64,000 bases of DNA. It comes from Prorocentrum cordatum. Lineage: Eukaryota. The stretch spans positions 62,001 to 126,000 of the forward strand of contig CAUYUJ010000003.1 of assembly GCA_963575745.1 (NCBI GenBank), read 5' to 3'. Each line of letters opens with the position of its first letter. Position 1 is the stretch's first letter. The notes beneath the pieces are model-generated. The model searched no databases. It was not told where the DNA came from and saw only the letters and a program-made list of their open reading frames with translations. The position numbers and the translations under genes are program-made. This document shows positions 3,920 through 61,140 of this stretch, piece after piece.

Positions 3920-4139
3920 CCGCCGGCCCCCTTGCGGGGCCACCAGGCTGCAGGCCGAAGGTTCGCAGTTTCCTGTGCCAGTTGCAGCTTCCAGTTTCCA
4001 CCGTTGCATGTCTGCTTACTGCTGCTTGCTGTTCCTCGTTGATGGGCCGCGCGAGGGGGGGGGGGGGGGGGCCCAGGCGGGCGCGTTCAGCGCGCCCTGA
4101 GCGCGCTGTCTGGCTTGCTGGGGTGGGTAAAAATTTAAA

Positions 4140-4690
4140 CCCTCGCGCAGATCAGCGGGGCCAGGGTCCAAAAGCGCAGAGGATTTGCTACATGTTTGAA
4201 ATTCGGTGGCAACCCTCGCGCAGATCGGCGGGGCCGGGGTCAAAACGCTCGTGGGATTTGCAACGTTTCTGAAAATCGGCGGCGCCCCTCGCGCAGATCG
4301 GCGGGGCCAGGGTCCAAAAACAGACGCAATTTGCTACGTGTCTGACATTCGGTGGCACCCCTCGCGCAGATCGGCGGGGCCAGGGTGCAAAGACAAAAGG
4401 GGCGTGCCACATTTTTGAAATTCGGCGGCGCCCCTCGCGCAGATCGGCAGATCGGCGGGGCCAGGGTCAGAAAACCCATGGGATTCTCAACATTTCTGAA
4501 ATTCGGTGGCACCCCTCGCGCGGATCGACAGGGCCAGTGTCCAAAAACATAAGGGATGCGCAACATTTCTGAAATTCGGCGGCACCCCTCACGCAGATCC
4601 GTAGGGTCAAAATCAAAAAACACAAAAGGGTTTGCTACATGTCTGAAATTCGGTGGCACCCCTCACGCAAATCCGCAAGGTCAGGGCAGA
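4140..4690. repeat. ~73-bp tandem minisatellite, ~8 copies
   Basis: Unit ccctcgcgcagatcggcggggccagggtc...tttgc(t/a)acatttctgaaattcggtggca starting at ~4140, 4213, 4286, 4358, 4431, 4512, 4585 and 4660. Confidence 0.9.
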
Positions 4691-13030: not shown

Positions 13031-13190
13031 CCGGACCAAATGATTCTCCCTCCGGCAAGCGGTGGCCCGCGGTGGCCCGCTGGTGTCCCGCCGGTGTCCC
13101 GCTTGTGGCTGGGCCCCAACCGGACCAAATGATTCTCCCTCCGGCAAGCGGTGGCCCGCGGTGTCCCGCCAGTGTGCCGGTGACCCGCTG
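13031..13190. repeat. 89-bp-period tandem duplication
   Basis: ccggaccaaatgattctccctccggcaagcggtggcccgcggtg at 13031 and 13120. Confidence 0.9.
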
Positions 13191-13199
13191 GTGCGAAAA

Positions 13200-13462
13200 C
13201 GATAGTGAGACCGATGACGAAATCGATTGTGAGATCGATAGTGAGATCGATACTGAGACCGATAGTGATATCGATCGTGAGATCGATCGTGAGATCGATA
13301 GTGAGATGGATAGTGATATCGATTGTGACATCGAGTGATATCGATCGGGAGATCATTCGTGGGATCGATAGCGATATCCAGAGTGATATCGACAGTGCAA
13401 TCGATCGAGTGAGATCGCTAGTGAGATCGATCGAGCGAGATCGATAGTGGGATCGATAGTGA
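13200..13462. repeat. 12-bp GATC-rich minisatellite (gagatcgat[a/c]gt)n
   Basis: Direct observation; a more decayed copy lies at ~15765-16070. Confidence 0.85.
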
Positions 13463-15131: not shown

Positions 15132-16214
15132 CTCAGGAAACCGCGGGAACCAACAACTTCCAGACAATTGCACCAGAGAAAAACCCAACAGGTGTTTTTT
15201 TTTTGAACGTTTGACAGGCACCATGCGCGGCCGCAGTTTCGCCGTAGGGCCCGAAGATGCGCCCTAAATTCGGATTCCTTGTCGCCTTTTCGGGCGTACA
15301 ACGGTCGAGACGGCCCAAGAAGCCTCCAAAACAGACGACCTGAGAGGGCCTGTCGAAGGCCCAATACGGTCTCAGGACGGCGGCGCGACTGCCCGAAGAG
15401 ACCGAGCAGACGGCGAAAAGGGCCCCAAGACGGACCTCTTGAGTCTCAAGACTGCTCCACGGAAGCCCAGGACAACCCCGAGACGGGCCGAATGAGCTCC
15501 CAGAAACGAAGTCGAGAGGTGCCGGGTCTGACGGAGTTTTTCTAACGCCTCGTCTTGCCAATGACCATTGTCATTCGCATCGTATCATGAGCAACATCAT
15601 CATCGAACCCAATCATCGTTAAAATGATCATTCTCATCATCTTGACCATCATCATCGTCGGCATTGGGTCTTCGTTGTCATCACCATTCGACCAGCCGGC
15701 GCCCAGATGCCTCTGCCGGCGCGGCGGTGGTATTTGCCGCAAGGCATCTGGATAGTCGCACCACCGATCGACCATTCACAATCGACCGCACTATCAATAG
15801 GGAGATCGATCGCGCGATAGATAGCAAGATCGACTGCGAGGTCGGTAAAAGGGTCGATCGTGAGATCGATCATGACACCGGTAGTGAGGCCGATTGAATG
15901 AGATCCATCGTGAGATCCATAAAGGTATGGATCGTGAAATCGGTAATCATAACGATCATGACATTGATAATGCTATATATTTGGTAAGATGGACGAAGGG
16001 ATCGATCATGAGGTCGACAATGAATTCGATCGTGGGACCGATAAACACATCGATGAAAAGATCGACCAAGAATCCGAGAACCCGGAAACCCAGGAACCCT
16101 GCCGCCCACCGAAGTCGGCCTTATAACCAATAACCAGGAACCATGGAACCCGGAACCGGGAACCTGGGAACCTGGCCGCCCACTGAAATCGGCCGGGAAC
16201 TTGCGCCAAATTTT

Positions 16215-18300: not shown

Positions 18301-18727
18301 CTGTCGAAAACGCGCGGTATCTGCTCCCAAGATCGACACAAGCCGAAGGGCGTCTGGGCGCGAGGGCACGGCGCAGAGAAGACTGGGCCAAAGCCGTTGC
18401 AATGTCCAACCTTGAAAAGTACGCCCGTACCTTTGCGAATCAGCTTGCTTTCGGCTCCGAAAGCTGGGCGGCACGTCGGCTTCAGGGGTATTCAACTATG
18501 TTCAAGACAGCATTGGCAGCCAGACGCGTATGTATATATATATATACAGATATTACGAATTAGCTTGCAGCCCTTTCGTGATTCGCCAGCGGTGTTGTCA
18601 ATTCGGCAAGATGGACATAAGCCATGAACGGCACCCAGGTGCTTGAGTCCTCAGGGGAGCCTTGACCAAGACCTGCATTGTACCGGTTCTGTGATGTTGC
18701 TACAGCTTCTGCTGCCCTTGCCAGACA

Positions 18728-19545
<818 letters not shown>

Positions 19546-20962
19546 TCGTGCGCCAGTATGTGTAGTCCGCGAGTCTGTTCACAACACGCGGTCCCCCCCA
19601 TGACAACGGCACTTCAGGTGCTCCCGCCTTCGGTAAATACCACAAATATCACACCTGCACTGCTCATGCTACTACTGTTGCTACGGGGCCCAGAGTCATC
19701 TGATCATGTGGTAGGGGGCAAGTGGTAAAGAATAAAGGGTAAGGATTTGGTGCATCCGGCTGCTGAACACCGTATGGAGCATCGAACACATCTATGGGGA
19801 GCTTGGGCAAGCCCGCTTCTGATGTTTCTTCCTAGATAATTTATGGAGCATGAGACATCTGCGAGGGGTCGGGGCCTCCTAGCTCTGTGTAAGACACAGG
19901 GCAGATATGAAATCTCGGTGTAAAGTGGGGGGGTACATATCACATTGTATGCCTATGCAGAGACAATCGGCCATGTGAGGAATTTTACTGTTACGCTCAT
20001 ACCGCCATGTGCAGCAGCGTAGCTGTGACTGGTAACACAACTGAACATATATAACTGCACATCCTGGAACTGAACACCCTGGGGCCGGCTCGCTTCCGAG
20101 GAAAACCCAATTCGGTCAAACGGACATAACGAAATTCATATGAGGGGGGCTTGGGTCGGCTCGCCACATATTTGACATCGAAGAAATCAATTGGGACTGG
20201 GATAGGCCCGGTTCCGATCAATTTCAGAAACATAACAACAGATGCGACGAGCTTTTGGTGCGGGGCCTTCGGGGCCCTGGCGCGTATGGCGCCCGAGGGT
20301 GCAGCGTCTGGGTCAACTGACACATCTGGCGCACGTTTCTCGTATGATTCCGACAGGTGTCTTCGGAAATCCGAAGGATGCCCTGAGAACTTCAAAGGAC
20401 TGAGGACCCCGTGGGACTTTCAGGGCCCACTGAGGGCCCTGAAGAGTCCCACGGGTTCCCCAGGCATCCCGAAGAATCTCAGCATAAGCACGTGCTCGCG
20501 AGGTCTGGAGTCCTCCTCCGAAAACTACGACACAACCGAAAGGCTGTCGAGAGGAGCTCCTGATGCATTATGAAATGCCGTAGGTTGTTTCATAAGAACC
20601 GTGAAGAGTTCCGAAACCGTCCTGAGGCACTCCCTGCGTGATCGGATGAAGACCACAAGATACCTGCTGCAACACCAATACGGATCGTCAACCCATCGGG
20701 CGCCAACAATCTCTATCCAGGCGCGTCAGAGGGTGATGGCCAGATTCCCGTGACTAGGTATTTTCCCACTGCTAGAACGACGTGAGCAACAGACTACCAC
20801 CTTCCCAAACTACCAGTAGCCCCAACAACATCAACCAACCAAATGCTTAGCGAACCAACTGAACATCCAAACAAACAACGACCAGCTGACCAAACTACTT
20901 TCCTGCTTCGGATATTCACTTGCATACCACGTGGCAGACTGACACATGGGCTGGCTACAATT

Positions 20963-29539: not shown

Positions 29540-30080
29540 GATGGCCCAATACGACCCAAAGACGGCTTCAGACAGCCCAAGATGAGTCAAGATAGCCTGC
29601 GAGTGGCCATGGAGCCTTCCAAGGACGCCCCCTAAGGGGCCAACATCCTTCCAACATCTGAAGAAAATCCATGTTGTTTTGCATTCTCGCCTTTTCGCTT
29701 GCGAGAAGTTTCAGAAGCTTCAGGATGATTCTAAGGTGGCCCAATGGAGCCCAAAGGGGGGCCCAAGAGGGCCCCGACACGGCCACAAACGCGCTCACGA
29801 GCGCCCGAAGAGCGGCCCAAGAGGCGATTTTGAGGGCTGTGACGGGGAGACCATTTTGTATCACCCCCCTTCTTTGATCGATGGTCTTCAAGATGGCCCC
29901 AAGAGGCTCCGAAGAGGGGCCAACAAAAAAACCCGAGAGGGTCCCAAGAGAGCCCCAAGAAACCCCCAAGAGGGCCCCTCGTGGGCCTCACACGCCTTCA
30001 GAATTTCCCCAAGACGGCTCCATGATGACCCCAAGAGGTCTCCAAGAAACTCCCAGAGCGAAAGATCCGCAAAGGCCTCG
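29540..30080. repeat. GGCCC(C)AAGA-rich dispersed repeat family
   Basis: Recurrent ggcccaagagg/ggcctccaagacgg words; related copies at ~15300-15500, ~21500-21580, ~22030-22200, 49710-50620 and inverted at ~54090-54190. Confidence 0.8.
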
Positions 30081-34560: not shown

Positions 34561-34834
34561 GCTAGACATCCCGCATCGCAGGCCCGCCCCCTCCTCCTCC
34601 TCCTCCTCCTCACCCTGCTCCTCCCTCGTCCTCCTTGCCTGCTGGAACTTCCTAGAGGCCCCCCCCCTCCCCCCGCAGCAAAACCTTGGCCTGATGAGGC
34701 GTCGCCGCCTTCGGCAGCGACGCCTGCGCGCCTGGCCGCCCAGCTGCGGACTGCGCGTTCGCCGCGCCCCACTCCGAGGCCTCGGGGATCTCAGCAAACG
34801 CACTGTCCTAGGAGTCCTACATAGGCTCTCTATA

Positions 34835-35320
34835 TTTGCCTCCTCCTCGTCCTCCTTCCTCCTACTCCTCCTCCTCCACCTTATCCTCCTCCTCCTCTCA
34901 ATCCTCCTCCTCTTCCGTCTCCTCCCTCACCTCTTCCTCCTCCTCCTCGTCCTCCTTTCCTCCTTATCCTCCTCCTCCTCCTCCTCCTCCTCCTCCGTCT
35001 CCTCGCCTCCTCCACATCCCCCTCCAATCCACATCTTCATCTCCTCCTCCTCCTCTTCCCCCTCCTCCTCCTCCTCCTCCTCCTCCTCCTCTCCTCCTCT
35101 CCTCTTCCTCCTCCTCCTCCTCTCTCCTCCCTCACTCTCCCCTCTCTCTCTCCTCCTCCTTCTTCTCCTCCTCCTCCCTCCCCCCCCGTCCTCCTCCTCC
35201 TGTCCTCCTCCTCTTCCCCCTCCTCCTCCTCCTCCTCCTCCTCTCCTCCTCTCCTCCTCCTGCTCCTCCTCTTTCTCCTCCTCCTCCTCCTCCTCCTCCT
35301 CCAACCCCTACTCCTCCTTA
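34835..35320. repeat. (CTC)n polypyrimidine microsatellite
   Basis: Direct observation. Confidence 0.95.
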
Positions 35321-35391
35321 CTTAGCACGCCCAAATTGCGGATAAGAGTACATGGGCGGGCGAATTGGTCGCGGGGTGGGTCGCGGAAGGG

Positions 35392-35725
35392 ACAACAACA
35401 GCAGCAGCAACAACACTAATACCAACAACAACACCAACAACACCACCAGCAACACCACCAGCAACAACAGCAACACCAATACCACCACCAACATCAGCAA
35501 TAACCACCACAACCACAACCACAACCACAACCACAACCACAACAACACCAGCAACACCAGCAACAACACCAACAATACCAACAACAACGACGACAACGAC
35601 TACGACGACGACAACAACACCACAAACAACAACAGCAACAACACCACCACCACCAACAAGCAACACCACAACTGCAGCAGCAACAACAAACCAACACAAC
35701 GCAACAACACATCCAGCACCAACAA
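35392..35725. repeat. (AAC/ACC)n degenerate microsatellite
   Basis: Direct observation. Confidence 0.9.
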
Positions 35726-37705: not shown

Positions 37706-38149
37706 ATCCAAAGTTATTCGTCAGAGAATCCAGCAAGAATCCGCACAACGGAATCACACTTCAGCCGCGCATCCATGGACAATGAATGACCGCTCGGCCC
37801 CCTCACTCTGACGAAAGAACTCGTCCTCGCCGCACCGCCAGGCGTGTCAGTAGGGCGCGGTCTGGGCCCTGCAGGCCAAGACCCTGAAGCTTGAAAGATC
37901 CAAAGGCCACAGGGACGGATGGTCGGCCCTTTTCAAAGCATGGTTGTCGCCCCGGGGCCGCGCGTATATATCTGACAAGTTTCCACCACAGAAAAGGCTA
38001 CACGGATCGTGGATGGGCTATGGATGGCCTATATTCAAATGTGGCTCTCGTCTCAGCGCCGCGCGCGCTCTAATTACTGGCAATTACACGGCTGGAGGGC
38101 GATCCGTTTTCATTGTGTGGCTCTCGTCTTAAGGCAGCGTGCATTTATG

Positions 38150-38420
38150 TGTCTCCCCACGATGTCAGCACAGGATGTATTGCTGTCCACTTCCGGGCCC
38201 CTTCCGCACAGAACGGTCACCGGCAAGAGATATCAGGGATGGAGAAGTAGAATGGGATGTTGGATGACTGGATGGGATTGGCAAGAGAGGGGCTGTGAGG
38301 CACGTGCGGCTGAGCCAAAATGGGTACGGACATCGCACCCTTCTCTGTATGTTCAAGCACATAGGCAAACGTCGGAGGACACATGTGCGAACTAATGAGC
38401 TGCTGGCGCTCATTCCCGCA
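38150..38420 (-). repeat. 3' LTR (271 bp)
   Basis: Aligns by eye to 48257-48528 with 22 substitutions + 1 indel (~91.5% identity); TG...CA termini. Confidence 0.95.
38310..38330 (-). other. DinoSL-like sequence inside 3' LTR
   Basis: Minus strand TCCGTACCCATTTTGGCTCA-G vs DCCGTAGCCATTTTGGCTCAAG (1 mismatch, 1 deletion). Confidence 0.9.
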
Positions 38421-38428
38421 GTCCCCCG
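38421..38428 (-). promoter_or_regulatory. Short putative polypurine tract (GGGGGAC) before 3' LTR
   Basis: Immediately upstream of the 3' LTR on the element sense strand; unusually short. Confidence 0.35.
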
Positions 38429-38762
38429 AAAAATAATGGGCTTGAATAGAGGTGCGACATCCGAGACCCATCTGGCATCCTTCAAACGATTCACACTAGC
38501 AGTACTGGCACTGGAGAGCGCAAGAAAACGGCAATTCGGACACCGTCCTCGTGGCTAGGCGGAGCGGCCTGACTTAACAAGAGTCCACGCCCCCGCGTCA
38601 GGTCACACTCTGGCCACTTGGCGTTCCCGAAATAAAGGGCAATCACGGGCGCAACGAGAACACTTGGACAGGAAAGATACGCTCCAAAACATGCAAGAGA
38701 ACTTCCGCCTCGCCAGTGCCTTGAAAACGGAGAGGTGAAAGAGGCGAGACAGAGGGCAGGAT

Positions 38763-39420
38763 TCACTGCAACTGTCGCCTGGGCTCGGCTCTGGATCGGT
38801 TCTTGACTCGGGGGTCGTCCTTACGATCTGTCAGAGAACCGTCTTCGGATCTTAACCTAAGCATGCCCGGCTTGAGTAAAGCGAGCTGGGCAGCATTCGT
38901 CTTGGCCGTATCGGCCTTGGTGAGGCAGTCGACAAGCATGCGGGGATGGGGCGCCCACCTGATCGCACTCCCTATCCGATCCATAGTCTCTCTAACGACG
39001 GCTAGATCTATGGCGGCCCTCCTATCTGACATGGTCCCCGACGTGAGTTTCGAGAGGGTGTCATAGATCCCCTTCGCGTCCACGACGCTGACATTGCCGG
39101 TCACCGGCTCGCCAAGCACAGCGCAGTCTTCCTCAAGAAGACTAACGAACGGACCGAGGTTGCCCCGCCACCGCTCGTGGACGACATTGCCGCGAGTGAC
39201 GTCGAGCAGCAAAATCTGGAGCCACTCCGCTTCGCCTAAAGCGCTAGAAAGAGACAGGGTCTCGCCCGCCAGAGCGGACGCCACTTGACTGCGAAGTTTT
39301 CCCGATCGCCACGCGATCGGGGTCACTCGGGCCCGGGGCCCGTGAGCCAAAGAATTATCGGCAATGTAAATATGCTAAGCCTCTTGTGGATGCTGAGGGG
39401 CCCCCTTCTTGTCCTCGGCC
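38763..39420 (-). pseudogene. Copia-type RNase H
   Basis: PIAWRSGKLR..ASALAGETLS, VVDAKGIYD, DRRAAIDL, IRWAPHPRMLVDCLTK (ADxLTK-like). Confidence 0.92.
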
Positions 39421-39559
39421 CCCGCTCCACCGCAGTCGCCGGCCGTGGCCAGCGCAAAACCGCCTGGTCGAAATCTCCAGACTATTATGGGGAGGGACGC
39501 GGTGGACCTCAGGTGGTCCATAATTTTGTTGGCATCCAACCGGTCCTTGACAGAGTGGG

Positions 39560-40450
39560 CATTCACCTTTGCGGCAAGAATCGAGGCCGCGCCCGCGGCC
39601 TCGGCGCGGGACTCTCGGCCCGCCCACTGCAGCTTATACACGAGCGACCGGAAAGCGGCCACCTCGCCGCCAACAAGGGGGGCCTCGTGATTTCCCCTCC
39701 GACCCCGAGCCAGCGGAATCTTCAGAGGCTGTTCCAGAATGTACTTCTCCTGGTCCACCAGGGCCCTGTCCCCGCCCAAACGCGGTCTCCTGCCAATATA
39801 CTCGACGCCTGCGGCGTCGAGCTTCTTCATCGTTCCAAAAATAAACCTAGCTTGGAACGGCTTCAAATAGTTCTCCGCACCCTTCTCGGAACGCGATGGC
39901 CCAGTCGCCCACTTCGACAAGGACCTGGGCCTGGAGGGCCTGCTTGGCCCGTTCCACAAACCAGCACGGTTCGAGGCGAGTCCGCTCATGACATCGAGAC
40001 CGGAGAGAATTAGCGGCGGTCTGATGAAACTCGAGGGGCGCGTCATCGAGACCGTAAGCGGAGCGATCAACTCGATGAGGGACCCCGGGGGAACCGGAAC
40101 CCCTTCGCAGGGCTCGACGAACCCCCCCCTGGCTCTCTTGAGAGGCTCCGACTGGCAAAACGCGTTTTTTAATGTCCCCTATGTAGATGCACAGCTTGTA
40201 CATGAGCGAGACCACCAACAACAGCATCAGGGCTTCCATGCACGGAGTGGGGGCATAAACCTGAAGTTCGCTCGCGTCCTCGTCTTGGTGGCCCCTCACG
40301 CGCCATATAGACTTGGCTTTGGGGGGGGCCTGCGTCCCCTCTTGGGGTTTCCATCTCCTGACCATCCTACTGGAGACGATCCTGGCGGGAAAGAGACGTC
40401 GCAGCTCCTTGGCTTGATCGGGGGGGTGAACGATCGCTGCGCGAGTGCCC
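39560..40450 (-). pseudogene. Copia-type reverse transcriptase (frameshifted)
   Basis: VSSRMVRRWK, KAKSIWRVRGHQD, YAPTP, GDIK, YGLDDAPLEF, EPCWF, LVEVGDW (xVDD with D>G), FRSLVYKLQWA. Confidence 0.92.
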
Positions 40451-41599
40451 TCGGCAATTGCTTTCCATTCGTTCTCATCGGACTCGTCGAACTGCCTGAC
40501 CTCGGCCCCGCGGTTCACGAGTATAGAAAGATCACCCCCCCCCCCCCCGGTCCCAAGACGATTTCAACGTCGGGGTTGCCGTTCGAGTAGGTACACCAGT
40601 TCCCAGTCCAACCCTCGTTTCGAACCTCATCGTCAAGCTGACTACAGAAAGCTTCCTGGCCCACCTCCCCGTCACACAGGGAGGCCCGAAGAGTCTCCGC
40701 CCGGGATTCCGGCCTCTCGGGAGACCTGGAGCGGCGATCCTCGGCTGGCCGCGTTTCCAGCTCATGGGCCTGCTGCTGGGCTCTGCCTGGAGTGGCGCCG
40801 CCAAACCTCTCTCCAAGAGTGCGGGATCTCTGAGCCCTGGGGCCCAGTTCCAGCAGCTCTCGCCGAGCGCTGTTCTGCATCGGGCGATTGAGCCGACCGG
40901 GGTCTATTGGCTCCGCGCTGCGATGTCGACTAGCCGTGTCAGAAGCATTGAGCTTGGGAGCACTAACTGGCGGAGCAGAGGAAGAAGGAGAGGCGGCAAG
41001 AGGAAGGTTGGCCGACGCCCCAGAACTGTCCCCGTCCCCCTATCTCGTTTTTCCCCTTGAGGTGCTGGTTGCCTACGCCTACTGGTCTCGCCTGGACCGC
41101 CGCCCCTGTCGGTGACACTTCTGGCGACGGGCAAAACAGAACGGCTTTCAGGCCTACTGGAACCCCTTGAAACGACAGTAGTTGAATCCCCCCCGCTGGA
41201 CACTTGTCTGGACTGACTGACGTCGGAGACCTCCGCCGCTTCCTCGCCGGGAGCCCCGGTGGCTTCCGAAGCCTCATCGAGCCGACTCTCCTCTGGGATC
41301 GGTCGAAGAGCACTTCCGTTTGCTTCCGCTGCCGGATGTCCCCCCATGCTTTCTCCCGGGCCCTCTGACAGTCCTGGAGGAGGAAGTGGAGGCTCTCCAA
41401 GCGCTCCCTCGGGTCCAGCACCTGGGTCCTGCTCGGCAGGTGGGGCTTCAACCGGCCCGGCTTCTGCGACCTGAGCGTTGGGCCCCCAGGCCTCTGGCGG
41501 AGGAGGGCCCTCCGCGGCGACGTTGGCCCCCGCCCGATGGTTGCTCGCTTGGGCATCCCTGAGCAACATCTGAACTGAAACATCGGAAAGAATCTCGGC

Positions 41600-42670
41600 C
41601 CCCCGGGACTCCTCGGTCGTGGCGCGCCTAACTGTTTCCGTAGAACACTTCCAAAGTCTAGATCGCATCGCCACCCGCACAGAAGTGCCGTTATGGAGAA
41701 CGACAAGCCCGGGACCGACCCGTCTGTCTTTCTGCAGCGCAAAGGTTTTCTGGCCCCCCCTGGGTGCCCTCCTCCAGACGTAGACCCACTGCCCAGGGCT
41801 GAAATGCTTCTCTCGACGCACCGAGGAGCGGACAGCATCCGCCAAGCGCCGCCGATTTGAGCTCTCGAAGAGCTCTTTCCTGGCCAGACGGCGGATGGCA
41901 TCGCGACGAGCGTGCTCAGCCGCTGCCGCGTCGCTGTCCCAGGATCCGGGAGAGAGATCTTCGGCCCCCGCGACCTGGAGGGGGTCGCCCCCGGTGAGGT
42001 CGTTCGGGATTCTGGGGTTGATCCTGAAAACAAGTTGATACGGCGTGAGTTCCCCCCTGTGGAGGTACCAACTCTTAGCCGAGACGACCTCATGAACGAG
42101 GAGTTTCGAGCTCGGCCGGCGTGGCGACGAGAACCCCCTCGGAAGCCTTCGCGAGGATGTCTTTCACCCAACCCCCGCGCCTTTCGGCCCGGCCGTTTTG
42201 CCGCGGACTCTCCGAGTCCGTGAAGTGTTACAAAACTCCTGGGCGTTCTATTCCCCGCTCAAATTCTGCCTTGAACTCCGGTCCTCCGTCCGCGATGGCA
42301 AGGGGGGGGCCCCGAAGGGTCGACTGCAACGCCTCATGCGCGCCCTCCAGGCCCCCAGAGCAGTGCCATCGTACATCTCGACGGTTTGAAAGTTAGTGCC
42401 AGAACATATCACGTTGAGAAAGGCCAGCTGCTGGTCCTGAAAGGCAGCGCAAAAGGCGTCCATATCTTATTGAACTCAAAAGTCCTGGGAACGGCGGCTG
42501 GTCGCGTGCTGTCTGGGCGGGCGTGGGCAGCGCAATCCCCGCACTGGTATTCATCGCCAACAAACTGCAAGACCTCCGGCTTGGCCTGGGCAGCTCTCAG
42601 GATTTCAATGAAAACCTCCTTGTAGGGGTGGCCCAAATTAATGTGGACCTTGTGGATCATTCTTCGGACC
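41600..42670 (-). pseudogene. Integrase (HHCC, DDE core, C-terminal GPY/F-like module), frameshifted
   Basis: HKVHINLGHP...CGDC; FLNVIC; ADGGPEF; ESPRQNGRAER; FSPGQWVYVWR...RVGPGLVV. Confidence 0.9.
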
Positions 42671-42867
42671 TTCGGGGTGATCTCGAGCCTGGAGGGAACC
42701 TGGTTGTCTTCCTCGGCTTCCTCGGGACCAGGCTCTTCCCCGACTTGGCCTTCCCCCGCCTCCGCCGGGAAGCTCGCGGCCACGTGGGGCTGCCTATGCT
42801 CTGGCTGCCTGGCGCGAGCGATCTGCTCCGGCGTCGGAGGAGGGTGGGCCTCCTCAGTGCTGGATCG

Positions 42868-43494
42868 GATTGATTCTGCCAGGGCTCTGCAAAACTTAGG
42901 AGGGTAGACTCGGCCCGCACAAGTCATGGCTCCTCCTATAAGCTGGGCGCGAGGACGGTCGCCCAGGCATCGGGCATCCTCGAAACGCCGCAGAAGAAAA
43001 GCCTCGCAATTGGGCATCAACCTAATGGGTTTCTTCGAGAGCCCCCCACCCTTGGCGACTGAAGCCCCGACGCGACACATATCGATATCCGCGACTTGCA
43101 CCTCTGGGAGCTCAGAAATAAACCGGACAACGTTCGTGGACCATGAGCTGGCCTTGGCCGGATGCTCGAAGACGAACTTTCTATGGTTCTGATGCTGCTC
43201 CAAAGCCACTTCCATGGCGAAACCAAGAAGGACCAGAGCTTCGGCGTGCTTTCGGCGCTGATGCTCTGATACTTCTTGGTGAAGCTGGCCATTCTGAGCT
43301 ATCGAGAACTGGTCGCAAGGAGGCTCTAGGGCCACCAGCCACGGCCTTTCCTCCCTGAGACGAGTTCTAAACCTCCGCCTGTGGTCCTCTCTTCTGAAGC
43401 CCCCTCCCCCCTCCTGATCGAAGCTGCCGATGCCCCTGATGCCGGCATGCCCCGCGTGCCTGGCGATTCTTGGCGGCGAGAACACCTCGGCAAA
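42868..43494 (-). CDS. Cytosine-5 DNA methyltransferase-like domain, in frame with the integrase N-terminus
   Basis: Motif I FAEVFSPP, motif IV LEPPCDQFS (Cys codon 43315-43317), motif VI FVFEHP, motif VIII-like DMCRVG...KKPIR, motif X-like YPPKFCRALA; uninterrupted within ORF 42409-43611. Confidence 0.85.
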
Positions 43495-43806
43495 AGCTCG
43501 CCTCCTCAGCTGAACCCTGATACTCTTGATCTTGCTAGGGGCCCCCGAATCGGCAGATATACTCTTCCACTCTCGCTTGCTAAAGAGAACCTCCCTGTCG
43601 TCGGAATTCAAATCGCTGAAGATGGTGTCATCGAGCTCCCTGCATCTGAAACGGATCTTATCCTGACCCCCCCCCCAGCTCGGTAACCTCGGAGAGGGGG
43701 CATAGCTTAATGAAAGACTCCCAGGACCGCGCTTCCATGGTGTATTCGTTTGGGTGATTGGGATCCCCTATACTGGTACTAGTACTGGATGGCTTCACTG
43801 CCCTAC

Positions 43807-45651
43807 TCACTTCCACTTGGCGTCGCTGCTGTCGTAGCGGTAGTCCTGCCACCCCGTCGGGGTCCAGCCCTCCTGGGCCAGCCTGCGCTTCTCCACGTCC
43901 TTCTGGTGCTCCTGGGCCTCCCACGCTCGCTCGTCCTCGGACCGCTGCCAGGCTGCGGGCGACCAGGGCGCTCCTTTGGCTGCGGAGCCTCCTGCTGCCA
44001 AGCTGTCGCCGTCGGGTGCCCCGCCGGCGTGGCTGGCGCCGGCTCCTGCGATGGCTGAAGTGAAGGAAATGTCGCTATGCTGCTGATGGTGGACGAAGAC
44101 ACTAGCTGGCCTTCCTTGTCGCGGATACCCCTTGGATTGGCAGTGTCCTTCTTCATCAGGCTCCTCTGCGATGCATACCCTTTCGGTGGTGGCCAGGGAA
44201 CCGACGGGCCCGCTGGCGCCATCGTCTGCTGAGGAGGCAGGCCGTGCGACGGGTAGGCGGGGGTCACGGGCGCCGTCCCGACGATCCCCCAGTCGTGAAG
44301 GCCCGCCGCCTGAGTCGCCATGCCGATTCCGACCACCTGCCTGACCTGGGCGGGCGGCGTGGCGATCGACATCTGCGGTGCTCCTGGAGGAACTCCTGCT
44401 GGTTGAAGTAGACCCGGAGGCCCCTGGTGTCCGACTTCTTCCGCCTGGCCTGCCACCGCTGCTGCTGCTGCCCCGCCGTGTCCCGGCCCTCGCGCCTGAG
44501 CGCTCGCCAATGGGACTGGCTGCGGGCTGAGCTGGTGCGCCAAGGCGGACTGCGGCGTCTCCTGCTGTGTGGGGGTCTCGGTCTGCGGCTTCAATGGCGC
44601 TCCTGGCTGCGAGTTCGACTGGAGCTGCGACTGCATCGTGGCCGAGGCGTTCATATGTCCTGAGATGGTGCTCTGCAGGCCCGCAATCACGCGGTCCTGT
44701 GCCTCCTGCTTGGCCGCGATGTTCTGGGGGAGCTGGAGCGTCTCCTCTGAGTTTCCTGCGTCGTCCGAGCTCGCCGCCCCCTCGATCATCGGGCACTTGG
44801 CTGGAGCCTGACTCGAGTCCTTGCGCTTCTGAGCTCTCGCCTGGCGAGCGTGCTCCTCCACGTCCTCCATCGCGGCGTCGGGCTGCTCCTCCTTGCTCAT
44901 GTAGGCCTCCTCTGCTGCTCGACGGTCGCGAGCCGCTGGCCAGGGCTGGGGGGGCTGGCACGACTTCGCCCTGGAACGACCTGGGAGGCGGGGCTGGCGC
45001 GTTGACCGGGGCTTGCCAGTCCTGCGAGGGGCCCCCATACTGGGCGGAACCCTGGCCGCACAAGGTGCACGCTGCCGTCGAGCGCTTGCAGACGCACGAG
45101 ACGTCGATCCTCGGCTTGCCTTTCTCGGGCTCGACCTCCCGGCAGGCGACCCGCATAGTGCAGGACGAGCAGACCCGCCACTGTCCATGCCCATTGCATC
45201 CGTGCTGGACGCTGGTGGGCAGGTGTCGACACGCGTAGAACGCGTCCGGGATCACCCGCAGGCGCTTGACCAGATTCGTGGGCCAGAACCTTTTGTTGGG
45301 CATCGTGCGCCCGAACTCGTCGGCAAGCTTGTTGAGCCAGAACATTATGCTGCCCACGATGGCAGCCCAATCCTTCTCCTTGCGGTTCAGGTTGGACGGG
45401 GCCTGCGCCCCCGTGACAGCGTGCGTCCAGGTGGAGCTCGGGTCCATCAGGTGGTCGACCAGAGTCGATGGTCGCTGAGCACGACGCTGCGCCTCGGTCA
45501 GCTGCTTCTTCATTCTCTCTGGCGGTTGGCCGGCATTGGCGCTGCCGACCGACGGTGCACTTGGCATCTCTGAACTGCAGCGAGCCTCTCGGCCGGGGCT
45601 CTCGCCGCGGGCTGACTTCGCTTCTCTCTGAGGCTCGAAGACTCGAGCCAA
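43807..45651 (-). pseudogene. Nested ORF with Cys/His cluster overlapping the pol linker in a shifted frame
   Basis: CRHLPTSVQHGCNGHGQWRVCSSCTMR plus further Cys pairs, then a Q/P/A-rich region. The protein-like frame switches at ~44930 and ~43950. Confidence 0.6.
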
Positions 45652-46139
45652 ACCGCTGTAGCAGAAGAACCGCCGCGATAAATATCACCGCCCACCTGTG
45701 GATGACATTCTTCTGTAAGGGGTCCCGCTCACCATCTCGTCGCGATATCTCCCCATGGCATCTCCTCGTCCCTGAGTGTCTGGATCCTTTAGCTGACGAT
45801 CCAGGCTGCCCAAGCCCCTTTGCGACGCCGTCTTCGGAGCGATTCCCTGGATCTTCACTGGGCTCGCTGTCCCTTGTCGGCGCGCCAAAACCGCCGAAGG
45901 GCCCTCTGGTCCCCAGACGGACCCCCAGACCGAGCCCCAACCTCCCCCCGAGACCGTCGTAGCTGAGTGATTCGGCCCTGTGGGAGGAGGAAAAGTGGAA
46001 GAGGTGAGAGGGGGGGTCGACGATCGTCGATGCCTTGCATGCCCCAACAGCGCTGTCGCGCTGAAAATCGCTTTCCTTAAGGCCAGGGCGCCGCGGAAAC
46101 AGAGAGGCTGGACACCCAAAGTTCCTGGGGGATTGGAAC

Positions 46140-46540
46140 TCGTCTTTTCGAATTGTCCCGTGGCCGCTGGGCATCCCCCTCATGGGGGTCTCCACTCCCA
46201 GGCGCCTCAAAGTCATGACACTGGTGTCGAGATCTATCTTGGAACCTAGCATCTCCTGAAGGCCTACTGGAAGCAACGGGGGCACTTCTTCCTGCAAAAC
46301 GTCTAGCTCTACTATGCCCTCTTTGCCCTGGATTCCGGTCGGGACCAGGGCCGCGTGCAAAACCCTAGTGCCACCTCCTACTCCTCTGGCATTCTTGCTC
46401 CTAGGCTCTACCAAAGGGATCTCGAGGCTTATTTTCTTCAGCCTCTGGGGGTGTCGCTCGAGCGCCTGGGCCCCAATCAGGCCCTGGCCGGCGGCTGCGT
46501 CTACTGCTGCCTCCCCGGCCTCAACCGTGAGCAGCGCCAT
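46140..46540 (-). pseudogene. Aspartic protease domain
   Basis: AAVDAAAGQGLIG (DTA>DAA), RGVGG flap, VPPLLPVGLQEMLGSKIDL. Confidence 0.85.
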
Positions 46541-46669
46541 CGCCTGCGCGGCCCGGCCCCTCTCGATCTGCTCCGTCTCCGACGCGATAGGGTCCAGCAC
46601 GTTCGCGAAGACGAAGCCCGCGACGTTCGCGACCCCTCCTGCGGTTGCACTGGCACTAGGACTCTGGCC

Positions 46670-48204
46670 ATTCCGCTTGGGACACTCACGCGCCCAGTGG
46701 CCCTTCTCGTTGCACTTCCGACACCTGGTCTTCTTGGTGAGTTCCGGAAGCGGGAGTCTTGTCTTCCTCTGGCGAAAGGTGCCATCCCCGCCCCGGTGAC
46801 CTCTATTCCCTCGTAAAGTCGACACTTTGACCGTCTCCTTCGTCCTGTCGAAGAACTTGCGATCGACCTTCATATTTCGTTTGAGGCCCCTGTTCTGCTT
46901 CCACGTCTTACGTCTGTCCTCCTGCATGCTAGCGAACGCCGCCGGCAGCTCGTCATCGTGCAGGTTCAGGTTCTCGATGGCCAAATAGATCTCGGCTCGC
47001 CCTCGGTGTTGAGGGTTGATGCGTCGTCGTAGTCTACTATCGAGTCGTCGTCGTCGTCATCGTCCACGGAGTAGCTGGGCTCATTATTCGTCCATTGTGA
47101 TGTCCACGATGACGCAGCTCCTCGATCTGTGTGGTACGTACGTGCCCTCTGGTGGGCAAGGTGCTCCTTCCTCGTCACGTCCATCTCTCGGATGGCTTCG
47201 AGGGCGTCCGGGTACGAGTCCTTCGTGGCCATGGGAACCTTCATCAGCTGCTGGCCTCGCCCGTCCAGTCCCACGCCCTCCTCTAATAATATAAACGTCC
47301 AGTCTTCTGGCACGGGCAATGCCAATGTGCCGACTTTGTCGAAGGCCAAGTCTATCCTTGCGGCGTCCTCCGTCGAGCCCTCGCCTTGGCGCCTCTGGAA
47401 GGAGAAGAGGCACTCCCTCGCGGCCTTGCGCTTCTCATCCCCGACGCGCTCACCGCTCAGGAGGTCCAGGCGGTCGGTCACCTTCTGCGCGCCCTCCCAC
47501 GACATGAAGACGTCGACTGGGATGTCCTCCAGCTTCCTCTGGAGGTCCATGGGCAACACCTTCAGAATGCGATCGGCGTGCTTGGTTTCTCCAACATCCG
47601 TGCTCTGGCGCCACCTCATGATCTTGCGTCGCCATAGCTTGTACTCTGGCCATCCTGCCCACGGCTCGGGGTCCGCGACGTTGCGGCCCCTCTCTTTCCA
47701 GCTCCAGCCGCCATCTTTGGAGTCATCCCACTTCCAGTTGCCGTCATTCTGGTTCTCGCTCCAACTCCAGCGGCTATGCCACCAGCGATCGTTGTCAGCC
47801 CGCTCGGGGGCCCTGCTGGACGCAGAGCCGGCTGCGGCTCTGTCCCTGGCCCACGGGTCTGCTCCGTCTCGCTGCCATTCGTCCTCTCGGTGTGCATTGC
47901 CCTCGGCTCGCCTGTCGTCCGCCTCGGGCTCTGGACTAGGCTGTTGAGCTTGGCTACGCACGTAGGTGAGGATCTGCATCAGCTGCGCTTCCGAAAGCGG
48001 GCTCGAGATGCGGTATTGCTCCGCAATCGGCTCTGGTTACCGAGCACTCTCGAGCAGGCCTCGTAGTTGCTCATCTGAAAGCCTGATGCGTCCGTCCTCG
48101 TCTGCCCACTGTCTCGCTGTCCCAATAGCCGTCGCTACCGGCCCATGGCCGCTCTGCCCGGATCCTCGGGATTGGTTATCAGCAATCTCCTCGTCCGCCG
48201 GCAT
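46670..48204 (-). pseudogene. gag with CCHC zinc knuckle (premature stop at 48037-48039, frameshift ~46975)
   Basis: ATG at 48204 (MPADEE) in frame with ORF 46966-47979 (PEPWAGWPEYKLWRRKIMRW...QRRQGE); CRKCNEKGHWAREC in the next frame. Confidence 0.88.
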
Positions 48205-48243
48205 CGGCCCGCAGAAAGTCGACAGAGCGCCGGTCGTACCGAC

Positions 48244-48255
48244 GCTCCGCCACCA
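48244..48255 (-). promoter_or_regulatory. Primer binding site TGGTGGCGGAGC
   Basis: Starts with TGG 1 nt after the 5' LTR; two A>G changes from the tRNA-iMet-type PBS TGGTAGCAGAGC (tRNA identity inferred). Confidence 0.75.
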
Positions 48256-48256
48256 C

Positions 48257-48528
48257 TGTCTCCCCACGATGTCAGCACAGGATGTATTGCTGCCCACTTC
48301 CGAGCCCCTTCCGCGCAGAATGGTCACCAGCAAGAAATATCAGGGATGGGGAAGTAGAATGGGATGTAGGATGACTAGATGGGATTGACAGGGGAGGGGC
48401 TGTGAAGTACGTACGGCTTGAGCCAAAATGGGCACGGACATCGCACCCCTCTCTGTATGTTCAAGCACATAGGCAAACGTTGGGGGACACATCTGCGAAC
48501 TAATGAGCTGCAGGCGCTCATTCCCACA
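48257..48528 (-). repeat. 5' LTR (272 bp)
   Basis: Partner of 38150-38420; followed by PBS and gag on the minus strand. Confidence 0.95.
48417..48438 (-). other. DinoSL-like sequence inside 5' LTR
   Basis: Minus strand TCCGTGCCCATTTTGGCTCAAG, 20/22 to TCCGTAGCCATTTTGGCTCAAG. Confidence 0.92.
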
Positions 48529-49709
48529 CGTGTTACATGTTCCCAACTAGCTACACGGATGGCCCGCGGTTCGTTTCCAAAACGTGCTTCTCGGTGCTTC
48601 ACTTTCAAGGTTTCGATTGCTACCAGGTGCGCGAATCGAGGACGGTCTGCTCTTGAACATGTAGCTCTCGCTCCCAAACTCATTATGCTTTAAACCCAAA
48701 GAGGGGGCTTTTCTTCTTGGAACAACTACACGAATGGAGGGTGGCTCCATTTCACATTCAAATGCCCGCCTTCGCGCCTCACACTTTTGTGAGAGGCGGC
48801 GTGCATGCCCGAAGCATCGAAGAGCAGTTGACAACTGTAATAGTGGTAATGGTCATTGTTTTTGTAGTCGTGATCGTAGTTCTCGTAGCTCCCGTATGCT
48901 TCATATTGCCACACTCGGCCAGCCATACCGACTTGGCCACCGTTGATATGGGGAGGGCGGGATGCGAGGTTATAGATCGGAGGGACGGGAAAGATGACAC
49001 ACTGTGTCTGCCAAAACTCTACGGCTACCTTCCGGGCTAGCCGTTGCACATATTTTCTCTTTTGTATTTCGTTCACTCCGTCTGGTGTACCCCTCTTTCT
49101 TTCGATGTGATCATGTGCATGATTATGGTTATGTGATTCGTTGCTCCTCCTCCTCCGCTCGATCGTACGGTCGGTTACTCTTTGCCTTACGTGGCACTAC
49201 GTCTGCTCTTGACCTCAATACCTGGCCTTTGTCTGCACCAACCTGCGACCGTAATTTGTCGCCAAGGTGACCTAAGTCGGCTCGCTCCAATTTTTCCCCA
49301 CAAGAGCGCCACAGGCAATGCTGCTCACGCTTGCCCAACGCGGCGAGCAGGATGAGCAAGGGGGCGAGGAGGATGAGGAGGAGCGGAGGGGTGAGGAGAA
49401 CGAGGAGGAGTGGAAGAGCGATAAGGAGGAGGGGATTCGTAGAGCGCACGGGCGAGGACGAGCACGACGAGGCCAGGGGAAACATCGGCTTCAAATGGAG
49501 GTCTCCGCCCGCGCGCCTCGCCCCACTGCTGCCACTCCTGCCACGAGGTGTCCTCCTTCAGGGCCGCGGGGGGGGGGTGGGGGGCACCGCCGACCGCCGA
49601 AAGGAGTGCGGGGCCGCCGCCGCGGAGCGAAAGAGAGCGGCACCCTCGTCGGAGCTCAGCGGGGAACTCTCGCGCGAGGGAGCGGGGGGTGGCAAGAAGG
49701 ATGAAATAA

Positions 49710-50620
49710 CAGCCCCCCCAGAGGCCCCCAGGGGCCCCCAAGAGGCCCCCAGAGGCCTCCAGAGGCTCCAAAACTTCCCCCAAGAGGCCTCAACACCGGC
49801 TCCAAGAAGCCTCCGAGAGGCTCCCCCTGAGATCCCAACGAACATCCACTAGACTTATAACCCACAACCCAGCCACGGTGGCGGGACTTACCGTAGGCAG
49901 CTGGATCCGCCGCCCCCTTTTGCTTTAGCAAAAGGGTGCCTGGCGTGCCGAACGATATGGCTTTTGGCCTTTGGTTCTTTTTCCAAAAGAACTCCCCCTG
50001 GGGCTCCGGCACGTCCCGCCGGCCACCCGGAAACTGTATCAGTCGATGCCTGAAACTGCCGTTCGCTCGGGACATCCTCAACAAATCGCGAAGATGGCCC
50101 AAGATGGCCTCCAAGTCCGCCCAAGATGGTCCAAGACGGCCTCCAAGACGGCCCAAGAGAGTCCAAGACGGCCCAAGAGGCCCCCCAGAGGCCTCCCAGA
50201 CGGCCCAAGAGGCCTCCAAGAAGTCCTCCACGAGGGCCCGAAGAGACCGAAATTATTTATTTTCCGTAGGTTCTTGAAGGATTTTGGCATTCGCGCATTT
50301 TCGGCATTCCGACGGCCCCAGACGGCCCAAGAGGTCCCCAAGATCGCCCCAAGAGGCCCCCAAGAGGGCCCCATGACGGCCCAAGTGGCCTCCAAGATGG
50401 CCCCAAGAGGGCCCCAAGATGGCCCAAGAGGCCTCCAACAAACCCAAGATGGCCTCCAAGACGCCCAAGATGGCCTCCAAGACGGCCCCGAAGCGCCCCA
50501 AGAGGGCCCCCAGTCGGCCCAGAAAGGCCTCCCAAACGGCTCCCGACGGCGTCAGACGTGCCAGGTACCCACCAAGATGGCCGAAGTTGGCTCGAGAGGC
50601 CCCCAAGAGGGCCCACACCT
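49710..50620. repeat. GGCCC(C)AAGA-rich repeat array
   Basis: Dense ggcctccaagacggcccaagagg words; same family as 29540-30080. Confidence 0.85.
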
Positions 50621-50629
50621 ACATTCGCA

Positions 50630-55415
<4,786 letters not shown>

Positions 55416-60452: not shown

Positions 60453-60774
60453 TTCCCATGATCAGCGTACCAGAATTTGTTTCTGGAAGGGCTCAAGATT
60501 AGGAGGGCGCAACAGTTACGTTGATCCGCGGTGTTAAAGTCCCAAGAATGGCGTTCTGGCGCTATTCAGGATCGCAAGTACGTAACATTCAGCTTGATCC
60601 GTGGCGTCCGAATCCCGAGAACAATGTTTTGGCATGCTTCTGGGTCTTCAGACGGATGTCTTCCTACGGGGCAGCTCCCTCAGAGGAAATGCACCGTTTT
60701 AGGGGCCTGTGAGGAGGGAGCCTGGAGGGAGGGTCTACTCCAACATTGTTCATGACTCTTGGGCTTACACTGGT

Positions 60775-60905
60775 CCTCCTCCTCCTCCTCATCCCTCTCC
60801 CCCTCCTGCCCCTCCTCCCCCCTCTCCTCCTCCTCCTCTTCCTCCTCCTCCTCCTCCTCCTTCTCCTCCTCTTCCTCCTCCTCCCCCTCCTCCTCCTCCT
60901 CCTTC
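60775..60905. repeat. (CTC)n microsatellite
   Basis: Direct observation. Confidence 0.93.
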
Positions 60906-61140
60906 TTCTCGGGCCTCGGGCCTTCGTGAGAAGTATTCTGAGTCTGCCCCGGATCTGCAGGAAACTCGCTCAGGATGCCAGAGGGCTTCCGGGAAGCCCC
61001 GCCGCCTTCTGAGAGGGCCTGCCCCATCTCGCTTCCCCCCCGGGCGCGCCTCCGAGTGGTGGAAGCTGGCAAGTGTTTAGGTCAACGCCCATTTCATACA
61101 TGATGCCGGGCGCGCGCCACATAGACCGTAATCCGATACA

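Follow-up and report, generated by a model that had tools for sequence, protein, structure and literature searches.

A spliced-leader copy inside both LTRs of a decayed, copia-like retrotransposon from the dinoflagellate Prorocentrum cordatum

Among trypanosomatids, the non-LTR elements SLACS, CZAR and CRE are found inserted in spliced-leader (SL) RNA genes. The locus reported here has in common with them a retroelement tied to SL sequence, but what it carries is a copy of the spliced leader within a long terminal repeat (LTR). Cer1 of Caenorhabditis elegans, a Ty3/gypsy element, is likewise an LTR element in an organism with SL trans-splicing. As far as PMC3315495 describes its transcripts, the full-length Cer1 RNA avoids SL1 trans-splicing and a subgenomic RNA can receive SL1. 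In contrast to the present locus, the leader is added to Cer1 in trans, to the subgenomic RNA only, and is not encoded by the LTR.

In dinoflagellates, the formation of relic leaders by reverse transcription of trans-spliced RNAs is a known process, and the relics treated under the Slamovits and Keeling model in PMC7245778 and PMC5585692 are 5′-truncated, tandem leader copies that precede retrocopied host genes. According to the description of relic structure in PMC7245778, which also supplied the canonical leader used here as reference (DinoSL, DCCGTAGCCATTTTGGCTCAAG), the AG at leader positions 6-7 is reused as an acceptor when recycled transcripts are re-spliced. DinoSL RNA genes are reported in tandem arrays, often with 5S rRNA or tRNA genes (PMC8045281, PMC12584245). 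The gene-level statistics of Song et al. (2017; PMC5585692) cover 500-bp upstream regions. In the results given there, recycled leaders lie upstream of retro-element coding regions, and RT-type genes are enriched among relic-bearing genes, the term “RNA-dependent DNA replication” being over-represented where relics lie upstream of genes in two Symbiodiniaceae genomes.

Copia elements of dinoflagellates are represented by SmTCL1-4, heat-activated Ty1/copia elements of Symbiodinium microadriaticum. In PMC5776459 and its supplements these are ~10 kb long with short LTRs (248 nt in file 7) and have the domain order gag-PR-INT-RT-RNaseH. The element described below resembles them in length, in its short LTRs, in its apparent domain order and in a near-identical putative primer binding site (PBS) 1 nt after the 5′ LTR. 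It differs in its leader, as the annotated 5′ LTR of file 7 has, by eye, no leader-like motif. When the PMC5776459 supplements, with four copia loci of S. microadriaticum, were searched in sense orientation and within printed lines for the core of the leader (an 8-mer in eight block phases and a 7-mer), only three unrelated short matches were returned. Since these four loci have no sense leader motif, leader capture is not general among dinoflagellate copia LTRs.

The DNA analysed here is a 64-kb stretch of P. cordatum sequence, referred to as the window. Like the DinoSL relics, it contains a genome-encoded spliced leader that arose via reverse transcription, and like the loci of Song et al. 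this recycled leader stands upstream of a retro-element coding region. Unlike the relics, it is a full-length single copy, has lost the AG 6-7 acceptor, and lies inside both LTRs of a retrotransposon instead of before a retrocopied host gene; the available text of PMC5585692 makes no statement on relics in LTRs. The unusual aspect is this location, inside the LTR, on the sense strand and in both LTRs. We found no description of a leader inside an LTR in the accessible dinoflagellate SL and LTR literature, and provisionally regard the finding as a variant of the known SL-relic phenomenon that is new in its location.

Leader copies in the two LTRs

The element, its LTRs and the leader copies occupy the following positions in the window.

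38150..48528, minus strand: whole LTR retrotransposon, 10,379 bp, apparently of decayed Ty1/copia type (LTR pair and broken coding frames)
48257..48528, minus strand: 5′ LTR, 272 nt, TG...CA ends, direct repeat
38150..38420, minus strand: 3′ LTR, 271 nt, TG...CA ends, direct repeat
48417..48438, minus strand: DinoSL-like 22-mer in the 5′ LTR (LTR positions 91-112; changes A6>G and G7>C; 20/22)
38310..38330, minus strand: DinoSL-like 21-mer in the 3′ LTR (G7>C; one A missing from CAAG)
48411..48416, minus strand: CCGTAC directly 3′ of the leader, no GT donor (read from the sequence)

A preliminary description of this DNA had placed a DinoSL copy on the sense strand of both LTRs, 90 nt into the LTR and with no GT donor after it, and our analysis bears this out. 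On the sense strand, the 5′ LTR reads TCCGTGCCCATTTTGGCTCAAG at 48438-48417, identical to the canonical leader at 20 of 22 positions, and the 3′ LTR reads TCCGTACCCATTTTGGCTC-AG at 38330-38310, one mismatch and one gap away from it. In both LTRs the copy begins at LTR position 91, keeps the TTTTGG core of the leader intact, has a C instead of the canonical G at leader position 7, and is followed by CC, not GT.

Only these two sites were recovered when the 64 kb were searched with a 21-mer (≤3 mismatches), and a 15-mer search with the leader core returned the same two. The 21-mer matched in 0 of 100 dinucleotide-preserving shuffles of the window at the same threshold, and the estimated chance of a match of at least 19/21 anywhere in the window is ~6e-5, which rules out a chance look-alike. 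Because the two copies descend from one sequence, they were counted as one event.

An SL RNA gene is ruled out as well. The 22-nt exon-like part of such a donor gene is present, and in both copies the GT splice donor and short intron are absent and no intron-like sequence follows. The copies number only two, one per LTR, with no tandem array and no 5S context, and no Rfam family was matched in the whole 64-kb window. Together with the shuffles, these absences leave a very small probability that the 22-mer is a fragment of an SL RNA gene or pseudogene inserted in an ancestral LTR, or a coincidence, even though it has the Sm-like AUUUUGG core that any leader copy would have.

The 22-mer is instead a reverse-transcribed copy of the leader in its spliced form. 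The leader is joined to LTR sequence without a GT intron, as a product of splicing is, and its presence in DNA implies reverse transcription of a trans-spliced RNA. Origin from a spliced RNA agrees with two features noted in the preliminary description, the missing donor and the sense-strand offset common to both LTRs. As in relic DinoSLs, a genome-encoded leader is fused to non-intron sequence. Unlike them, it is not at the 5′ end of a host-mRNA retrocopy but 90 nt inside both LTRs.

The two LTRs differ from each other at 2 of 22 leader positions and at 21 of 250 flanking positions, so the leader has decayed like its flanks. This is the expected pattern in a dead copy and is uninformative on earlier selection. 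Three AGs occur at LTR positions 75-80, and the next is formed by the last two bases of the leader (111-112). No AG lies directly 5′ of the leader today, the nearest being 11-16 nt upstream, so the acceptor used at capture is not visible now.

Two further features of the LTRs were noted. The CCGTAC that follows the leader in the 5′ LTR repeats leader positions 2-7, the non-canonical C included, and the corresponding CCGCAC of the 3′ LTR (38304-38309) matches leader positions 2-7 at 5 of 6 bases. The repeat may be a microhomology trace at the capture joint, or chance (~1 in 4,000 for 6/6 at a fixed place, a post hoc figure). Near the upstream end, both LTRs contain a 7-bp perfect palindrome, AATGAGC...GCTCATT (48502-48522 and 38394-38414), whose stems are unchanged between the LTRs and whose loop differs by one base.

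The TTTG that the preliminary description had noted upstream of the leader is present in both LTRs, at LTR positions 52-55; the spacing it had given carries no weight, as an estimated 1 in 10 or so stretches of 15 nt hold TTT[T/G]. Motifs of this kind are central to an alternative in which the leader belongs to U3 and acts as a core promoter. Its TTTT/TTTG would be TATA-like, transcription would start tens of bases downstream and give an RNA without the leader, and the leader would be inherited through the U3 of the 3′ LTR. Song et al. (2017) proposed recycled DinoSL as a basal promoter via TTT(T/G), and PMC5585692 reports stronger conservation of the TTT(T/G) motif and of relics at -50 to -100. 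Here TTT(T/G) is kept in both LTRs and the TTTTGG core is undamaged. However, the first Met of the gag-like frame is ~440 nt downstream of the leader, not the 50-100 nt of that promoter-retrogene model, and the leader has no extra conservation between the LTRs, where none is expected after insertion. A promoter role is in our judgement unlikely.

The host element and its relatives

The LTRs are 91.5% identical (19 transitions, 3 transversions and 1 gap), end in TGT...ACA, and have no further copies within the 64-kb window besides the pair. The longest block identical between them, 36 nt, is at the LTR end next to the PBS and ends in CA. This block is relevant to the idea that the leader and some or all of the next 160 nt were taken from a host mRNA by template switching, in which case part of the LTR would be a host 5′ UTR. 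The leader is in spliced form, and reverse transcription is in general prone to copy-choice recombination with RNAs packaged together. The PBS-side LTR end, however, is exactly the part that is identical over the longest stretch and that ends in CA as an LTR should, and we consider transduction of a host 5′ end improbable.

The internal parts of the element are listed in sense order.

48243..48255, minus strand: PBS-like site TGGTGGCGGAGCG, 1 nt after the 5′ LTR
46969..48036, minus strand: gag-like open frame, 356 aa, no Pfam match
46676..46723, minus strand: CCHC zinc knuckle (PF00098, residues 112-127 of frame 47056-44900)
42853..43275, minus strand: domain conserved in alignments with P0002 and P0003, outside any known family, lying between protease and integrase, no Pfam match
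42532..42645, minus strand: integrase N-terminal H..H...C..C zinc-finger motif, read from the translation
40907..42163, minus strand: putative integrase C-terminal part, frame-shifted relative to its neighbours, matching the middle of P0002 by eye
39850..40563, minus strand: reverse transcriptase remnant (PF07727 RVT_2, weak)
38766..39374, minus strand: RNase H-like C-terminal part of pol, matching the P0002 C-terminus by eye, no Pfam match
38421..38434, minus strand: polypurine-tract-like stretch, sense ...CGGGGGAC, just 5′ of the 3′ LTR

Since the gag, CCHC, integrase, RT and RNase H frames are all on the minus strand, this is the sense strand. The zinc knuckle is a PF00098 match with an E-value of 2.9e-6 (27.5 bits, cut-off 20.8), and the RVT_2 match has an E-value of 0.028 (14.4 bits against a curated cut-off of 31.6, which it does not reach). 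The element's frames gave no Pfam match to rve or RNase H, and a Pfam scan of thirty further short frames gave nothing relevant. In the alignment of the integrase motif with relatives, H375, H380 and C412 are invariant. The best database relative is P0002, an unnamed protein product of Prorocentrum cordatum, which covers 63% of a 452-aa frame at 52% identity (E 4.5e-83).

In the sense direction, the gag-like frame is followed by the CCHC knuckle, the domain of no known family, the integrase motif, the integrase C-terminal part, the RVT_2 remnant and the RNase H-like end. Read from translations and the P0002 alignment for the integrase and RNase H parts, this arrangement fits the Ty1/copia order. 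The long frames between the LTRs are broken by stops and frameshifts, and the element is a dead, decayed LTR retrotransposon, apparently of Ty1/copia type.

We take TGGTGGCGGAGCG as a candidate PBS. In an S. microadriaticum copia element (PMC5776459, supplement file 7), the sequence that begins 1 nt past the annotated 5′ LTR agrees with it at 12 of 13 positions, and this identity supports the assignment. The 64-kb window contains no tRNA gene, and hence no partner tRNA gene for TGGTGGCGGAGCG. A hairpin with a 14-bp stem (48221-48251, minus strand) takes in the 3′ part of the PBS-like site together with the first few bases of the leader region. The predicted RNA fold from the leader to the PBS is not better than that of shuffled sequences (z -0.91).

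Two internal regions have further features. The domain at 42853-43275 is ~140 aa long, has a motif like FxFEHPxxASSWST and is common to P0002 and P0003. Its structural neighbours in the Atlas include a cluster in which 93% of the members have RVT_2, and a weak feature-based lead (0.85) connects it to a cluster of DNA methylase fragments. The ~1.9 kb that separate this domain from the protease-like part consist of GC-rich, low-complexity open frames (43800-45700, minus strand) that have no matches and contribute to making the element unusually long for the copia type. P0003 is a 280-aa fragment with the source label Pyramimonas sp., a green alga, and is 53% identical to this copia polyprotein, which suggests either transcriptome contamination or a shared element family.

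No target-site duplication is present. The 5-mers that border the element were compared at 38145-38149 and 48529-48533; in the sense direction one reads ACACG and the other CATAA, and the two flanks are not homologous. Recombination between two elements may account for this, or a rearrangement of the flanks. If the LTRs come from two elements, both carried the C7 leader, and from this we would infer, but only infer, that the leader is a trait of the family.

Other copies were sought in several datasets. In DNA run X1, 366 contigs match along the element, 24 of them at ≥99% identity, 33 at 95-99%, 98 at 90-95% and 211 below 90%; metagenome run X2 contributed 61 contigs, X4 11 short pieces and X3 none. 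X1 and X2 contigs occur along the full extent of the element. On these counts, many diverged look-alikes exist. Three X1 contigs continue past the LTR edge at 48528 into letters like those of 38421-38434, so other copies share this LTR-to-polypurine junction.

Pattern and protein searches gave no relatives. An LTR 21-mer without the leader found two loci in a metagenome scan, both on bacterial-looking contigs with no LTR similarity by eye, and none in viral contigs. A second LTR-end pattern was absent from genome contigs and hit the viral contigs once, with a chance 20-mer lacking further similarity. Protein-guided locus searches were likewise negative, both with two window frames and P0002 in viral contigs and with P0002 in genome contigs. 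A 129-aa open frame that runs through the 3′ LTR and leader had no match as a protein, either in a word-indexed collection (70-226 aa) or among 1.84 billion protein representatives.

Proposed capture of the leader and the change at position 7

From the observed sequence, offset, strand, missing donor and kind of element, we infer a capture route in which the RNA was the element's own and the leader was inherited passively. An ancestral RNA, most simply the element's own genomic RNA, would have received the leader by trans-splicing, at an acceptor that lay within the 5′ LTR. Synthesis of minus-strand strong-stop DNA would then have run to the very end of this RNA, leader included, and in an imprecise first strand transfer the leader copy would have been joined to the upstream part of the LTR. 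Through ordinary LTR synthesis, both ends would have received the order “U3 part - leader - rest of LTR”. On this view, the leader would mark the 5′ end of the copied RNA and hence the point where R began when capture took place, and in the present copy it would be a decaying fossil.

Capture from a trans-spliced RNA at the then U3/R junction, copying to both ends and subsequent passive decay is the best explanation we have, with about an even chance of being correct. It is preferred because the leader is at the same offset on the sense strand of both LTRs, far beyond chance; because it is fused to CC and not GT, as in a spliced RNA; because the C7 variant common to both LTRs was already in the integrated cDNA; because the parts needed for LTR copying are present, namely TG..CA ends, a PBS-like site, a G-run 5′ of the 3′ LTR, a CCHC knuckle, an integrase motif preceding RVT_2 and an RNase H-like end; and because reverse transcription of trans-spliced RNAs is an established source of encoded leaders in dinoflagellates, with “RNA-dependent DNA replication” genes enriched among relic-bearing ones. 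Decay of the leader at the rate of its flanks, the 19 transitions among 22 substitutions and the broken frames agree with a decaying fossil in this copy. In the preliminary description, the first of two options was a trans-spliced RNA that became fixed in the LTR and was copied to both ends, and this is the reading that we too find most likely.

Several points stand against this history. The first jump should be blocked by a 22-nt unpaired tail on the strong-stop DNA, and capture would require a rare illegitimate transfer. Nucleotides added at the end of strong-stop DNA are known to become part of the U3/R joint in yeast Ty1. An AG directly 5′ of the leader is missing from the LTR of today, the mismatch between the 5-bp flanks complicates a simple history with one insertion, and the S. 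microadriaticum copia loci have no leader motif in sense orientation.

The C at leader position 7 is found in both LTRs, so the variant was already present in the integrated cDNA. In the mRNA leaders of Amphidinium carterae, positions 2-7 vary very little, according to the leader data in bioRxiv 10.1101/2024.02.20.581179, and a natural variant leader with C7 is thus unlikely. The same preprint describes the A. carterae leader as heavily modified, which makes a reverse transcription error at capture a possible source of C7. The low variation at these positions also makes C7 a sound marker for telling cis-encoded from trans-spliced leaders, as the preliminary description had suggested. The shared C7 is by itself no proof of inheritance over several cycles: one cycle copies strong-stop DNA into both LTRs, so a single capture cycle with a reverse transcription error also places the change in both, and a fresh capture and a leader-bearing parent fit alike. 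C7 also removes the AG at leader positions 6-7, and with it the acceptor behind the truncated relics that form on re-splicing.

The loss of this AG is compatible with a leader that the element writes for itself. Transcription would start at leader position 1, R would begin with the leader, and the genomic RNA would be leader-like without trans-splicing and handled as a mature host mRNA. This was the second option of the preliminary description, which also suggested that the leader may mark the U3/R boundary and that read-out from the 3′ LTR could tag downstream host sequence. The layout is fully compatible with LTR replication, the leader being the first 22 nt of R; C7 in both LTRs takes away the reusable AG, and positions 2-7 rarely vary in real leaders. 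On the other hand, real leaders are heavily modified on the SL RNA and a cis-encoded copy need not be, the upstream TTTG does not exceed chance, and the leader was observed in a single decayed copy of the element. We hold a self-encoded leader to be decidedly unlikely.

In a different scenario, the leader would aid strand transfer. The RNA would start upstream and be trans-spliced at the terminal AG of the leader (LTR 111-112), which recreates “leader + R”; the leader of the 3′ LTR would then pair with the end of the strong-stop DNA, and C7 would block mis-splicing at AG 6-7. It agrees with this that no AG occurs between the three at LTR 75-80 and the one formed by the last two leader bases, and the transcripts of Cer1 in C. 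elegans, as presented in PMC3315495, show that trans-splicing and genomic-RNA function can conflict. But the 5′ end of the RNA would be the template for R in each of the new LTRs, so that progeny should have G7, unlike the C7 observed, unless transfer occurred early. This makes the scenario very improbable.

More broadly, the leader could be a selected LTR part of an active copia lineage, either as a self-written leader or as terminal homology for the first transfer, with G7>C disabling the internal AG. We view selection in this general sense as possible but rather unlikely. If true, an LTR retroelement would have adapted to life in a host with trans-spliced mRNAs.

Surroundings of the element and meaning for dinoflagellate LTR elements

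Apart from the retrotransposon, the window seems to be free of recognisable genes, judging from its open frames and from the tRNA and Rfam searches. Outside 38150-48528, no Pfam match (E≤0.001) was found in 68 long stop-to-stop frames (68 of the 92 of at least 170 aa). Simple and short-period repeats are frequent in the remainder of the window (18600-19900, 51650-52700, 34800-35700, 60740-60940, 49700-50520, 29730-30030, 50600-51100, 54740-55400, 13170-13440, 15780-16080 and 4074-4625), including long TAC-type and CCT-type trinucleotide tracts, C/CA-rich tracts and a 73-nt tandem repeat. Arrays of a 10-11-nt CCCAAGAGGCC-like unit occur just upstream of the element and again near 29.8 kb, and there are also arrays of a 12-nt GAGATCGATAGT-like unit.

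Promoters and transcription start sites of dinoflagellates are poorly defined, and LTR elements in these hosts pose a puzzle, since LTR replication needs identical sequence at both RNA ends and the host replaces the 5′ ends of its mRNAs. A leader-bearing LTR is a concrete and portable test object for these questions. If young copies keep the leader, this would bear on whether an encoded leader replaces trans-splicing, on the TTTT-type promoter, and on trans-splicing versus strand transfer. If the leader is private to this copy, the locus would be a rare molecular record of a trans-spliced LTR-element RNA whose leader survived reverse transcription.
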